A stretch of DNA of 64,000 nt from Escherichia coli (GTDB taxonomy: Bacteria; Pseudomonadota; Gammaproteobacteria; Enterobacterales; Enterobacteriaceae), in the NCBI RefSeq assembly GCF_003019035.1, contig NZ_CP027447.1. One strand, 5' to 3'. This document shows, piece by piece, positions 2,122 through 33,328 of this stretch (position 1 is its first letter; every line of letters starts with the position of its first letter). The notes below the pieces were generated by a model. That model had not been told where the DNA came from and searched no databases. It saw nothing but the letters and a program-made list of their open reading frames with translations. Made by a program: the position numbers and the translations under genes.

Positions 2122-4554
2122 TTACAGCATATGTTCAGTACGGGCGATGATATCGTCCTGAGCGTCTGGAGAGAGCGCGGTGAAGAAGGCGGAATAGCCC
2201 GCGACACGCACTACCAGATCGCGGTACTGATCCGGATGTTTTTTCGCTTCCAGCAGCGTTTCGCGGGAAACGATGTTGTACTGAATATGCCAGCCTTTAT
2301 GCACTTCAAAGAAGGTGCGTAGCAGGATCATCAGTTTCTGCTTGTCAGATTCGTTCTCCAGCGTTGCCGGATTCAGTTTCTGGTTGAGCAACACGCCGCC
2401 GAGAATCGCGGCCGTAGGCAGTTTACCCACCGAGCCAATGACCGCAGTAGGGCCAAGATGATCAGTACCGGAGGCCGGACTAGCGCCTTCTGCCAGCGGG
2501 GTATGCGCTTTACGTCCGTCCGGCGTTGCCATCGTCTGCGCGCCAAAGGGTACGTTAGCGGAGATAGATGACGTACCCGCGTAATAATTGCCGCCAACCG
2601 GACCACGACCATAGCGCGGGTTATGGTACTGTTTTAGTTCGTCGATATAGGTCTGATAAGCGCGAGCCAGCAGCGTATCGACAGTATCATCGTCGTTGCC
2701 GTACTTAGGCGCACCGTTAATCAGCCGCTGACGCAGCTGCTCGTGAGTCAGGCCGTCGAAGTCATCCGCCAGTGCGGCAGCCAGCTGTTGCTGACCAATC
2801 GCGCCCTGTTCAAATACCAGTTTCTTCACTGCCGCCAGGCTGTTGCCGAGGTTAGCAATGCCGACCTGCAGGCCAGAAACCCAGTCATATTTCGCGCCGC
2901 CTTGCTTGATACTTTTCGCTCGCTCAATACAGTCATCCACCAGCGCCGAGCAGAGAATATCGTGTACGTTCTCTTCCAGCATGGTGTCGACGACATATTC
3001 GATTTCGATTGATTTACGCGTGTAGTAACGGATTTGCGTATCCCATGCGTCCATTACTTCATCGAAGTTGTTGAAGTTACCCGCTGACAACGCTTTTTCT
3101 TGTGGCAGGAACACTTTGCCGCTGGTGGCATCACGACCGCCTTCCAGCGCCGCCAGCATCACGCGGGCGAAGTTGATAAAGCTCATGCCGGTACAGCGAT
3201 AGCCCCATTTGCCACCGACGGCGGTTTCGATACAACCAATCGCTGCGTAGTCGTAAGCGTCCTGCGGTTCAATACCGAGTTTAATAAATTCCGGGATGAC
3301 GATTTCATCGTTGTTGAACGCCGGCATCCCGAAACCACAGCGGATCACCTGAACACAGGCATCGAGGAAATCGTTACTCATACCCGCGTGGTAGCGCACG
3401 CTGAGGTTAGGCTGAGTGGAACGCAGGCGACCGCAAGATTCGAGGATCGCATAAGAGAGTGGATTTACCGCGTCCATCGGTTGACCATCAACCAGATTTT
3501 GCCCGCCAATGGTGACGTTCTGATACAGCGGACTTCCCGCAGAGGCTTTTGAGTGTGAGCCGGAGCGGATTTTGTTCACTTCCAGCAATTTCAACCAGCA
3601 GCTATGCAGCATCTCGATGGCGTGTTCGCGATCCAGTGTCTGGTTCAGTTCAACGTCGCGGCGATAGTAAGGGTAGAGATACTGGTCCATACGACCAAAC
3701 GATACCGAGTGACCGTTAGATTCGATCTGCAAAATCAACTGGATGAAGTAACACAGTTGCAGCGCCTGCCAGAAAGTCTGCGGCGGCTGGTGGGCGATAA
3801 GATCGCAGTTTTCTGCTATCGCCAGCAGTTCATCGCGACGGCTTTCGCGGGTTTCAGTGGCTGCCATTTCACGCGCCAGGGCAGCGAAACGTTCAATGTG
3901 TTCACTGACTGCCACCAGCACGATATCAATCGCTTTCAGGAACTGCTCGCCGTGCAAATCTTCCAGCACCGTCAGGTTGATGCGCGAGCGACGTTCCGCT
4001 ACTTTCTCGCGCAGACCATCAAGACCTTTTTCCAGCAGTAGCGGGAAATTGACCGCCAGGTGCGCATCGCCGGAGGTCATATTGCCCTCCGCTTTAATGA
4101 TGCCGGTCGCCAGCAGACCTTTTTGCTCATCGGTAAACATGCCGTAGCAGCGATCCTGTACGGTCTGACCGCGCCACCACGGGCACACTTCATGCAGAAC
4201 GCGTTTGTTCTCTTCGCTCACCGCAAAACCAGCACCGGGACGATCTGCCAGATCATCAATCTCTTTTTCGATCCATGAGACGGTATATTCCGGGAAGATC
4301 GGCGCGGCGCGAACTTCGCTTGCCTGGTTGCCAATGATCAATTCATCGTGCTTGATCCAGATGGTGCGATTCGCCAGGTGATGCGCCAGTGCCAGCGCGC
4401 GACGTACCGGGATCGGCTTATCGAGATGTTGTTGATACATCCCGGTATAGTGCTGCGCGCGCTCGGTACAAACCGGCGGTTTCACAATATGCACCAGCGC
4501 ATTTTTGTGCGCTTTAATGCGGTCGCTGAGCGTGTCCAGTTTCAGTGTGGTCAT
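2122..4554 (-). CDS. ybiW: Glycyl-radical enzyme, pyruvate formate-lyase-like
   Basis: 810-aa ORF; PFL-family length and C-terminal glycyl-radical region (RVAGYSAFF); matches recalled E. coli YbiW. Confidence 0.92.
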   Translation of the reverse strand: MTTLKLDTLSDRIKAHKNALVHIVKPPVCTERAQHYTGMYQQHLDKPIPVRRALALAHHLANRTIWIKHDELIIGNQASEVRAAPIFPEYTVSWIEKEIDDLADRPGAGFAVSEENKRVLHEVCPWWRGQTVQDRCYGMFTDEQKGLLATGIIKAEGNMTSGDAHLAVNFPLLLEKGLDGLREKVAERRSRINLTVLEDLHGEQFLKAIDIVLVAVSEHIERFAALAREMAATETRESRRDELLAIAENCDLIAHQPPQTFWQALQLCYFIQLILQIESNGHSVSFGRMDQYLYPYYRRDVELNQTLDREHAIEMLHSCWLKLLEVNKIRSGSHSKASAGSPLYQNVTIGGQNLVDGQPMDAVNPLSYAILESCGRLRSTQPNLSVRYHAGMSNDFLDACVQVIRCGFGMPAFNNDEIVIPEFIKLGIEPQDAYDYAAIGCIETAVGGKWGYRCTGMSFINFARVMLAALEGGRDATSGKVFLPQEKALSAGNFNNFDEVMDAWDTQIRYYTRKSIEIEYVVDTMLEENVHDILCSALVDDCIERAKSIKQGGAKYDWVSGLQVGIANLGNSLAAVKKLVFEQGAIGQQQLAAALADDFDGLTHEQLRQRLINGAPKYGNDDDTVDTLLARAYQTYIDELKQYHNPRYGRGPVGGNYYAGTSSISANVPFGAQTMATPDGRKAHTPLAEGASPASGTDHLGPTAVIGSVGKLPTAAILGGVLLNQKLNPATLENESDKQKLMILLRTFFEVHKGWHIQYNIVSRETLLEAKKHPDQYRDLVVRVAGYSAFFTALSPDAQDDIIARTEHML

Positions 4555-30859: not shown

Positions 30860-30963
30860 TAGATAAATTTCAGGCAACAAAAAACCCACTTATCTAAATG
30901 GGTTAATAAAAACAATAAGTTAGATAAAAAACAATAACTTAATGTGGTGGTCAGTGGTGGTTA

Positions 30964-32016
30964 TTATGGGGTAATGCCAACCGCTGCCGCCACTTTGTCG
31001 CCATTTGGTAACGTTGCCAGTGGATTGAAACGGAGCGCCGTTTCCAAATGATCCAGTGCCAGATGTGCATAACGCATAGTCATTTTTATATCGTGGTGTC
31101 CGAGAATTTTTTGTAAGGCCAAGATGTTTCCACCCGACATCATGAAGTGCGCCGCAAACGTATGGCGCAGAACGTGTGTCAGTTGACCGCGAGGGAGAAC
31201 GATAGACGTTTTTTCCATCACGGATAAAAATTGAAAATAGCAGTCTGTGAAGAAATTGAACCCATCGAGCGCCATGATCTCTTCATAAAGCTCTTTACTG
31301 ATAGGGATGCTTCTGTTTTTCTTCCCCTTCGTTCTCACAAAGGTGATTCGGTACTTGGTGACCTGTGAGCGGGTAAGATTGATTGCTTCTCGCCAACGTG
31401 CGCCTGTACTTAGACATATTTTTACCACCAGTGCCAGAATTGGGTTCTGACGTTTGCAGTCAGACAGTAATTCGATGATCTGCTCATGTGTAAGCCATGC
31501 CATTTCCTTTTCTGCGATAGTGAATTTGCGCATCTTCTCTAATGGGTTTGGAAGTGTCCATTCACCCAGGCGGGAAAGTTCTCTGAAAACGCTGCTTAGA
31601 TGGCTTTGCTCCAGGTTAACAGTAACTGGGCTTGCTCCTTTCTTCCATTTTTCACTGAAGTAGATTTCACCAGTAAGGCGTTTATCGCGATAGTGAGCAA
31701 ACATTTTTGAGGTGAGATCGGTTGCAAGGGGATTTCCCAAGGCGTCAACCATCAACAGCAGCTTGTTGTAGACATGCTGTCCGGCAGTAAGAGATTTGCC
31801 ATGTAATTTGAACCATAGCTCAACCATATCTTTCAGTGTCCGACGATCCACTGATTCGCCCAGCCAGGGCTTTGCTTCTATTTCCCCCATGGTGTATCGC
31901 TCGAAGGCCAGTGCTTCGCCTTTGGTGGCGAATTGTTTACGCACACGACGCCCATTACGTCCGGCGGGGTAACATTCGCAAAGCCATTTCCCTGTGGTGA
32001 GTTTTCGTACTGCCAT
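30964..32016 (-). CDS. int: Phage tyrosine integrase (P2 Int-like)
   Basis: Start chosen at MAVRKLTTGKW; C-terminal catalytic region (HVLRHTFAAHFMMSGGNILALQKILGHHDIKMTMRYAHL) carries the tyrosine-recombinase R-H-R-Y signature. Confidence 0.88.
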   Translation of the reverse strand: MAVRKLTTGKWLCECYPAGRNGRRVRKQFATKGEALAFERYTMGEIEAKPWLGESVDRRTLKDMVELWFKLHGKSLTAGQHVYNKLLLMVDALGNPLATDLTSKMFAHYRDKRLTGEIYFSEKWKKGASPVTVNLEQSHLSSVFRELSRLGEWTLPNPLEKMRKFTIAEKEMAWLTHEQIIELLSDCKRQNPILALVVKICLSTGARWREAINLTRSQVTKYRITFVRTKGKKNRSIPISKELYEEIMALDGFNFFTDCYFQFLSVMEKTSIVLPRGQLTHVLRHTFAAHFMMSGGNILALQKILGHHDIKMTMRYAHLALDHLETALRFNPLATLPNGDKVAAAVGITP

Positions 32017-32204
32017 AAAAAATGCCCTCCAGTAGAGAGCATTTTCACTGTATGTATAACCAGTGTCAATGTATGAAATCCTACGACCATACATCTCACT
32101 GAAGCCATAATTAAGTTGGCTATTCTTTTTGCTATGTGAGCATGTAACTTTTGCGGTTAACCTGCGGCTCATTTTTATTTTAGGCGCAGATATAAAAGCA
32201 AAAG

Positions 32205-32396
32205 TTATCGTGAGTTTTTAGTACAGATTTTTTTGGATTTACTAATAGTTCCATCATTGCAAACGAATTTGCCATCTGAGGTACAGTGAGAAACACCTCC
32301 CTTTTTCCCTGAACAGGGATAATTTCTAGCATAGGTAGTTAGTGGGTTTAATAACAAAGAACATGAAAAAACCACAAAAAATACCTTACCAAGCAT
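32205..32396 (-). CDS. Small Cys-rich secreted protein of unknown function, between cI and int
   Basis: 63-aa ORF with strong RBS (GGGAGG); N-terminal signal peptide and four cysteines in the mature part; starts 16 bp after the cI stop on the same strand. Confidence 0.5.
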
Positions 32397-32411
32397 AGTT
32401 TCCTCCCGGTA

Positions 32412-32987
32412 CTATTTAACATACTTGACTGTTAAACTTATAATTTTACCAATTATTTCAATGTCTTCTATCTTGCATTCGAACGCTCTGTTTCCACCCT
32501 CGACGAAGATTCTTCCACCGGGTAAACGAGTAATGTCACGGATCGTTATTTCACCATCAATACTTATTACCCATTTACCATCACGTATATCATCAAATTC
32601 CTTATCACAAATAAATTCAGAATTATTATCTGTGATTACAAAAAGACTCTTGAATGCCGACGGTAGAAATCCCCTATCGAAAATATAAAAACCGTCTTCA
32701 CACAAGGCACCATCAGATAATACATATTTAGCAACTTCCATAGTATTTGTATTACCTGAAGTTTGCTTTGAACCATGTCCGGTTGTGAGCCAATTAAGCG
32801 AGGTGCCCGTTTCAAGGGCGCATTGGATTACCCATTCTGCTGGGAATGAGTCACGCATGTAGCGTGTGGCGAGTGTACTTTTAGAGATTCCTAAATGATC
32901 GCACAACGCCTGTCGAGTTTTGAATCCATAAGCTTCTACCATGCGCTCTATAGCGCCTCGTCCGCCTTTCTCCAAATTCATGGTCAC
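32412..32987 (-). CDS. cI: Prophage repressor CI (186 CI-like)
   Basis: 191-aa ORF; N-terminal HTH (LCDHLGISKSTLATRYMRD); divergent from apl/cII as in phage 186. Confidence 0.85.
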   Translation of the reverse strand: MTMNLEKGGRGAIERMVEAYGFKTRQALCDHLGISKSTLATRYMRDSFPAEWVIQCALETGTSLNWLTTGHGSKQTSGNTNTMEVAKYVLSDGALCEDGFYIFDRGFLPSAFKSLFVITDNNSEFICDKEFDDIRDGKWVISIDGEITIRDITRLPGGRIFVEGGNRAFECKIEDIEIIGKIISLTVKYVK

Positions 32988-33106
32988 TCCAAGTGAACTT
33001 TTATCTTGACGATTTCACTGTGCGATCGTATGTTTATGATGTTCACAAAATACAAACGATCCGTATTCGTCCTGATTAATCATCATTAAACGAGGAATGT
33101 TGCATC

Positions 33107-33328
33107 ATGAGACCTAACATTTCAATCACTCTTACCACGCCTCATGTGACTATTGAACGCTATAGCGAGCTGACAGGGCTGTCCATCGATACCATCAATG
33201 ACATGTTGGCTGACGGACGCCTTATCCGTCACCGTCTGCGCAAAGATAAAAAACGCGAAAAAGTGATGATCAACATAGCAGCCATGACCGTTGATGCGCT
33301 TTCAGAATGCAATCTAAACCTTAATTAG
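33107..33328 (+). CDS. apl: Apl/Cox-like excisionase and early regulator
   Basis: 73-aa ORF divergent from cI, first gene of the rightward early operon. Confidence 0.65.

Follow-up and report, generated by a model that had tools for sequence, protein, structure and literature searches.

The short gene that separates the repressor and integrase genes of an Escherichia coli prophage belongs to the YdcA family, and we favor, with a probability of roughly 0.55, the reading that it is cargo of a P2/186-like phage encoding a Sec-exported, disulfide-bonded, cationic mini-protein of 40 residues, which would act in the lysogen as a protective periplasmic binding module. The gene is already catalogued and ordinary in kind, being a member of a known uncharacterized family in a known kind of cargo slot. 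Its wider significance lies in the distribution of this family: temperate phages that are unrelated to one another, plasmids and chromosomes have acquired the YdcA domain time and again, and homologs occupy cargo positions in at least four other phage types. About one in nine of the complete E. coli genomes have the arrangement described here, and with it a tiny secreted protein that is probably made while the prophage is silent.

Gene context and coding status

The window (the whole 64,000-nucleotide stretch of E. coli DNA that was analysed) contains, in this order on the minus strand, cI, ydcA and int. The relevant features, with the evidence used for each of them in parentheses, are the following.

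32205..32396, minus strand: ydcA-family gene, 63 codons plus a TAA stop, ATG start (ORF list, sequence, NF007463, PHROG 6000, RefSeq name, purifying selection)
32328..32396, minus strand: predicted Sec signal peptide, residues 1-23, cleavage after Ala23 (hydrophobicity profile, -3/-1 rule)
32208..32327, minus strand: mature 40-residue domain with four cysteines (composition, conservation in 97 domains, AlphaFold2)
32397..32411, minus strand: gap of 15 nt between cI and ydcA, with the Shine-Dalgarno sequence GGGAGG at 32402-32407 (direct reading of the sequence)
32412..32987, minus strand: cI repressor gene, adjoining ydcA upstream (ORF list; RefSeq "phage repressor protein CI")
33097..33125, minus strand: candidate lysogenic promoter pL, with -35 TTGAAA (33120-33125), a 17-nt spacer and -10 CAACAT (33097-33102) (suggested by phage 186 geometry)
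32017..32204, minus strand: structured spacer of 188 nt between ydcA and int (folding, comparison with relatives)
32017..32045, minus strand: hairpin followed by U6 directly before the int ATG, terminator- or attenuator-like (-14.9 kcal/mol, z -4.7)
30961..32016, minus strand: integrase gene at the prophage end, adjoining host rcdA (RefSeq annotation mapped from locus L001; ORF list)

The coordinates given in the earlier note for a 63-residue reading frame with a strong ribosome-binding site, shortly after the cI stop and on the same strand, were confirmed. The gap reads TACCGGGAGGAAACT on the coding strand, and its GGGAGG lies 5 nt 5' of the ATG. The cI reading frame ends with a TAG at 32414-32412, and its RefSeq start maps to 32981; the encoded repressor is ~33% identical to CI of phage 186. 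An E. coli locus with 99.6% identity (L001) has a RefSeq annotation that puts the start of int at 32016, which leaves the 188-nt spacer after ydcA. As the host genes ybjI, ybjJ and rcdA lie just to the left of int, the prophage is inserted next to rcdA and has its int end here. The DNA at 36000-60900 matches P2/186-like phages (~96% identity over 71% of its length), and the right-hand part of the region therefore contains the usual P2-like structural genes.

Assignment of the product to the YdcA family is supported by several resources. The window protein matches NCBIfam NF007463 (PRK10040.1-2) over profile positions 1-58 of 58 with 113.2 bits (E 3.4e-33), above the curated cut-off of 93 bits, and PHROG 6000, a phage family with function unassigned, over positions 1-56 of 56 (E 2.7e-34). 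RefSeq names the gene of the 99.6% identical locus "YdcA family protein", and precomputed annotation places PF27300 (YdcA) on a 97% identical cluster representative as well as on homologs; a Pfam-A scan of the protein, using a library version that predates PF27300, gave no meaningful match. The identical protein sequence is present on 169 contigs in public databases. The UniRef name "Conjugal transfer protein", attached to some identical or near-identical sequences, has no support in the gene context.

This is a real gene under strong purifying selection. In the 34-codon core of the mature domain, the synonymous/non-synonymous differences to three prophage variants amount to 7/0, 10/1 and 20/2, and 82 close copies have between them 12 synonymous codon variants and a single non-synonymous one in the mature part (1 and 3, respectively, in the signal peptide). 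Conservation beyond chance, whose absence would have spoken against the gene according to the earlier note, was observed both in the family match (E ~1e-33) and in the synonymous bias of the changes in relatives. The alternative of a fortuitous reading frame, or of mere non-coding spacer, in the cI-int interval could appeal to the length of only 63 codons and to the AT-rich stretch, but its probability is practically negligible in view of this match and bias, of the strong ribosome-binding site and of the 303 YdcA clusters recovered from public data in a search of 1.84 billion cluster representatives. An overlapping 50-residue reading frame on the same strand (32180..32332) is unsupported as a gene, the synonymous-biased substitutions fitting the 63-residue frame.

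Predicted export and properties of the mature domain

The sequence is consistent with the small exported, cysteine-rich protein proposed in the earlier note. The N-terminus consists of MLGK, a 12-residue hydrophobic core (Kyte-Doolittle about 2.2-2.6) and NPLTTYA, in which Thr occupies position -3 and Ala position -1, so that residues 1-23 are predicted to form a Sec signal peptide cut after Ala23. The leader sequence is highly variable across the family while Ala23 (-1) is invariant; a hydrophobic stretch precedes the domain immediately in 135 of 147 family representatives, with the median domain start at residue 26. Several UniProt relatives are named "Periplasmic protein". A lipoprotein was considered and rejected: there is no lipobox L-[AS]-[GA]-C, the fifth cysteine of the protein (C12) stands within the hydrophobic core in the context VFSC followed by SLLLNPL, and it is unconserved in the family.

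The predicted mature part has 40 residues (4.29 kDa, pI 9.7, net charge +7) and contains C28, C38, C46 and C58, which would form two disulfides in the periplasm. The family spacing C-x9-C-x7/8-C-x11-C and the motifs P-C-S-G, G-G, F-x-C-x-D/N-G and S-x-S are all present in it. In 97 diverse domains the family motifs, including the four-cysteine pattern, are invariant or at least 82% conserved: the four cysteines and two serines are invariant and the P, G-G, F and D/N-G elements nearly so. Three basic positions are kept in 73-87% of these domains, whose net charge has a median of +4 and goes down to -2. Conservation of the mature domain extends over wide distances, as it is almost invariant (50-60% identical) across alpha-, beta- and gamma-proteobacteria. 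The AlphaFold2 model of the domain (mean pLDDT 85) has a small beta-hairpin core, and a structure search of AFDB50 returned family members only (TM 0.85-0.95). A conserved His/Cys metal site seems unlikely because about half of the diverse domains lack His37.

Transcription of the lysogeny module

The cI-ydcA interval contains no promoter-like or terminator-like site on the coding strand according to a simple promoter/terminator scan. Upstream of cI, the hexamers of the candidate pL have offsets from the start codon of an apl-like gene (33107) that exactly equal the annotated offsets of 186 pL from apl; the simple promoter scan did not report this candidate. Because the gap is 15 nt, no such site intervenes and the pL candidate has the 186 geometry, co-transcription of ydcA with cI is likely. 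Transcription from the lysogenic promoter would mean that the product is made continuously in the lysogen.

The downstream side is less clear. The 188-nt spacer has a minimum free energy of -62 kcal/mol (z -5.6); the ~100 nt nearest ydcA are peculiar to this cargo variant, and the last ~88 nt are common to relatives. The hairpin at 32017-32045 carries the int Shine-Dalgarno sequence in its 3' arm, and three relatives, each folded singly, have equivalent hairpins before int, with different stem sequences and energies of -14 to -16 kcal/mol. This element may act as a terminator of the cI-cargo transcript or as a control on the translation of int. The earlier note had deduced co-transcription both from the proximity to cI and from the int gene that follows. 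The former part stands as likely, while the argument from int is weak, since the cI-ydcA transcript may end at the conserved hairpin and U-tract before the int start. Overall, the cI-ydcA link is tight and read-through into int is uncertain.

Three further observations concern this region. A promoter-like site (TTGACA, 17 nt, GAAAAT; 32041-32069, minus strand) just upstream of the pre-int hairpin is kept in relatives whatever their cargo and could be a separate int promoter. A long hairpin at 32100-32204 reads as a terminator on the plus strand (site 32151-32167, with the T-run on that side), not on the ydcA strand. An Rfam search of 31900-33200 revealed no RNA family.

The cI-int interval as a cargo site

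Judged from comparison with related phages, ydcA is accessory cargo (a moron) in a variable cI-int slot of a P2/186-like prophage at rcdA, because the gene is absent from phage 186, where cI and int abut with nothing between them, and because the contents of the slot differ among relatives. In phage vB_EcoM-813R9 the slot (L005:4091-5767) encodes a 558-residue protein annotated as "chromosome segregation ATPase", which matches PADLOC PD-Lambda-1. Two other loci (L007:5198-6529 and L012:5224-6555) encode a 443-residue KAP NTPase matching the PADLOC candidate PDC-S20; the arrangement of YdcA with a KAP NTPase occurs in Escherichia and in other Enterobacteriaceae such as Klebsiella. The slot of Pasteurella phage F108 has an unrelated 150-residue reading frame, and that of Vibrio phage K139 has orf2 and glo, the product of the latter being annotated as periplasmic and involved in phage exclusion (see also PMC4870250). 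The classification as accessory rather than core, already made in the earlier note, thus agrees with the gene content of relatives. The 186-like prophages at rcdA have a cargo hotspot in their cI-int slot, and the same interval was described as a defense hotspot in K139-like phages by Rousset et al. (PMC9122126).

The YdcA-only arrangement is found in 592 of 5426 complete E. coli genomes (about one in nine), and the L007-type arrangement of YdcA with KAP in 9 of them, the L012-type being left out of this count. With the window protein as query, PADLOC-DB 2.0 gave no defense model at E <= 0.01, and the same search matched the neighboring cargo of relatives.

A positional counterpart of the window protein is Glo of K139, a P2-related phage: Glo, too, is small and has a signal peptide, and its gene belongs to the lysogenic operon, where it lies between cI and int. 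In contrast to YdcA, it has 137 residues and is not cysteine-rich. Homology between the two was rejected, as hhalign aligned the signal peptide only, with a probability of 5.5%.

Distribution of the YdcA family

Members of the family are found on chromosomes, plasmids and phages of gamma-, beta- and alpha-proteobacteria. In Haemophilus phages HP2 and S2 an unannotated homolog overlaps the cI stop (TAATG) and is followed by the signal-peptide protein orf1(S) and then by int. A scan of IMG/VR with the HP2 homolog as query provided 80 diverse viral contigs (the window protein as query gave near-identical copies only). In about 21 of these 80 loci, HP2-like phages by similarity, the homolog adjoins cI on the downstream side, except in four of them, where one gene intervenes. 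In another ~36 it is flanked by the tail assembly chaperone on one side and, downstream, by membrane or lipoprotein cargo genes, as in Acinetobacter and Moraxella phage records. Some 9 loci have it in a Mu-like early region, adjoining the Mor activator, and in 4 it stands beside ogr in P2-like phages. The enterobacterial phage genomes of the phage collection were all without a homolog.

The family is not specific to lysogeny modules: members are also known from tail-gene and Mu-like early regions, from plasmids and from chromosomes (ydcA). Given the homologs in those Mu-like early and tail-gene regions, expression in the lysogen is not a trait of the family as a whole. The tail-region position has a counterpart in gp15 of phage HK97, a small envelope-targeted superinfection-exclusion protein, which is a membrane protein encoded as tail-region cargo and expressed from the prophage. 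Its location is comparable to that of the YdcA homologs in Acinetobacter and Moraxella phages. On the other hand, gp15 is a membrane protein whereas YdcA is a soluble cysteine-rich domain, and no sequence relationship between them is expected.

In the loci with the Acinetobacter-like layout (L126-L175, ~4001-4130) a cargo cluster adjoins the tail assembly chaperone. The YdcA homolog comes first in it, a PHROG 8279 protein with a C-terminal membrane helix second and a lipoprotein third; in some of these loci a HicB antitoxin-like gene is located just upstream.

Relatives with informative context

Most family members are a bare domain, but tandem arrays of two or three copies also occur. In others the domain is joined, right behind the signal peptide, to Endonuclease_NS (4 clusters), SNase (1 cluster), a VasL domain (1 cluster), PBCV basic adaptor motifs or Lys/Ala/Pro-rich tails, and some relatives have Lys/Ser-rich linkers or tails. 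One metagenome contig (L181:4001-4921) encodes a 306-residue protein composed of a signal peptide, YdcA and Endonuclease_NS, located beside a T4SS coupling protein gene and GmrSD, surroundings that suggest an integrative conjugative element. The 88-residue reading frame following this nuclease fusion could be an inhibitor.

The domain of YdcA from E. coli K-12 (b1419) is ~74% identical to that of the window protein. The K-12 protein and its family (PF27300, NF007462/NF007463, PHROG 6000) have a Sec signal peptide, a domain of ~35 residues and the motif PCSGxKGGxxHC...FVCNDGxxSxSKKxC in common with it. The two genes differ in their setting: K-12 ydcA is chromosomal, adjoins rydC and is linked to YdcI, acid and sigma-S, whereas the window copy is prophage-borne and lies behind cI. 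A periplasmic location has been predicted for K-12 YdcA (PMC11340327). In E. coli W, deletion of ydcA caused sensitivity to 300 mM 3-hydroxypropionate, and induction of the gene by acid under YdcI has been reported (PMC7642389); sigma-S holoenzyme gave a binding peak between rydC and ydcA (PMC5493296).

A single PDB relative of the window domain emerged, and a tentative one: Legionella Dis2 (Lpg0823; PDB 7MUC/7MUD chain AN). It was the top match of Foldseek (E 0.41, probability 0.77, 38-50% identity) and also of a profile search, where the similarity is borderline (E 4.4e-5 with the signal peptide and 0.03 without it). A homology of YdcA and Dis2 is no more than probable on these grounds. As predicted for YdcA, Dis2 has a signal peptide and is disulfide-rich and periplasmic; it lies close to the outer membrane, and both of its lobes have a YdcA-like motif (CSKMGGINYC...LVCNNGxxS in one and VCNDGYVSE in the other). 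The window protein is a single domain whose gene has cI and int as neighbors, whereas Dis2, with its two lobes and five disulfides, belongs to a secretion machine. Published work placed Dis2 near the outer membrane, its two similar lobes being pinned by the five disulfides (PMC8486379), and described it as a non-enzymatic, dispensable protein in contact with lipoproteins, its partners being DotK, DotC and DotD (PMC8486379, PMC12716638). These papers describe it as having no homologs outside Legionellales. A search for Dis2 homologs with a 45-residue Dis2 fragment found nothing, and a single-sequence search with a two-domain YdcA relative (P0079) did not find Dis2.

Proposed function and alternative explanations

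In the favored reading, the YdcA domain would be a small, non-enzymatic binding module, with a conserved anionic target on the periplasmic side of the outer membrane, either an envelope component or DNA in passage, and the lysogen would gain a protective envelope trait. A binding module is suggested because of the tandem copies, the fusions to secreted enzymes, the conserved charge, the near-invariance across classes and the Dis2 precedent. Within this framework, a protective role of the exclusion type is favored by the defense genes and Glo carried in the same slot elsewhere, as well as by the tail-region cargo positions, which resemble those of the HK97 gp15 kind. Interference with the entry of incoming phage or foreign DNA (superinfection exclusion) may then be a tentative expectation for the outcome. 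The near-invariance of the mature domain across classes counts against it, as phage-specific exclusion proteins tend to diversify. An exclusion role, envisaged in the earlier note alongside conversion, is at most plausible, and no PADLOC defense model matches the protein. A host-directed envelope or stress role is favored, in turn, by the extreme conservation and by the stress-linked chromosomal paralog, and tolerance of acid or organic-acid envelope stress, as with chromosomal ydcA, is a conceivable if somewhat doubtful outcome.

The host-directed role can also be taken on its own. The prophage gene would then be a constitutive extra copy of the host ydcA, linked to acid and stationary phase, which aids the lysogen under acid or organic-acid stress and leaves phages unaffected. 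We regard this as rather doubtful. The ~74% identity to the K-12 domain, the 3-hydroxypropionate sensitivity of the deletion, the acid induction under YdcI and the sigma-S peak at rydC/ydcA all speak for it, and the extreme conservation fits a host-directed target; but the reported phenotype comes from a single study, without a mechanism, and it accounts neither for the fusions to secreted nucleases nor for the repeated presence of the gene in Mu-like early regions, in cargo clusters among tail genes and on small plasmids. Nuclease fusions also figure in an unlikely explanation, according to which YdcA is a periplasmic DNA-binding mini-protein that sequesters or blocks DNA crossing the periplasm (phage, transforming or conjugative) and serves as the substrate-binding module of the fused enzymes. 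It is in line with the fusions to Endonuclease_NS and SNase right behind the signal peptide, one of which shares its contig with genes for a T4SS coupling protein and GmrSD, with the conserved basic positions and the Lys/Ser-rich linkers or tails, and with the frequency of the family in the naturally competent Haemophilus, Moraxella and Acinetobacter; moreover, periplasmic nucleases of mobile elements are known to block transformation (PMC12378983). Yet the domain has no recognizable DNA-binding fold, some members have a net charge down to -2, and E. coli is not naturally transformable in practice. The fusions fit DNA binding and envelope anchoring equally.

Two readings would make YdcA a part of something larger. 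It could be half of a two-gene unit with the KAP-family NTPase, the window copy being an orphan after loss of the partner, as two diverged YdcA variants (67% and 88% identical) each have the 443-residue PDC-S20 NTPase 12-14 nt downstream. This is quite improbable given that YdcA stands alone in 592 of the genomes counted, against 9 with the L007-type pair, that there is no KAP remnant in the 188-nt spacer, that PDC-S20 is catalogued as a single-gene candidate and that homologs elsewhere have unrelated neighbors. We give very little credence to an accessory structural subunit of an envelope-spanning machine, such as Dis2 is in the Legionella Dot/Icm system. Dis2 is indeed the top PDB match by both structure and sequence profile, and each of its two lobes resembles the YdcA domain; against this stand the borderline similarity without the signal peptide (E 0.03), the lack of secretion-system genes near ydcA in the window, the single domain of the window protein instead of two, and the dispensability of Dis2 for T4SS structure and for growth in macrophages.

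A broader generalization, which we consider unlikely, is that the YdcA domain is an unrecognized periplasmic polyanion- or DNA-binding module spread by mobile elements, whose free form would block the entry of foreign DNA, such as phage genomes or transforming DNA, across alpha-, beta- and gamma-proteobacteria. If true, it would amount to a broad, non-enzymatic form of superinfection exclusion, the nuclease fusions being armed versions of the module and Dis2 a domesticated tandem copy. Returning to the favored binding module, if its target were identified, both E. coli ydcA and a phage cargo gene that is widespread would acquire a role, and Dis2 might be explained as well. Were this target incoming DNA or a conserved envelope component, the protein would represent a simple and broadly distributed protective mechanism; were there no phenotype, it would be an ordinary hitch-hiking cargo gene.

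Finally, the degenerate prophage of E. coli BAP1 (L182), a strain that we take to be a B/BL21 derivative, has intact int, ydcA, cI and an apl-like gene together with a truncated cII and a truncated replication gene. The lysogeny module, including ydcA, has outlived the rest of the phage in this strain.
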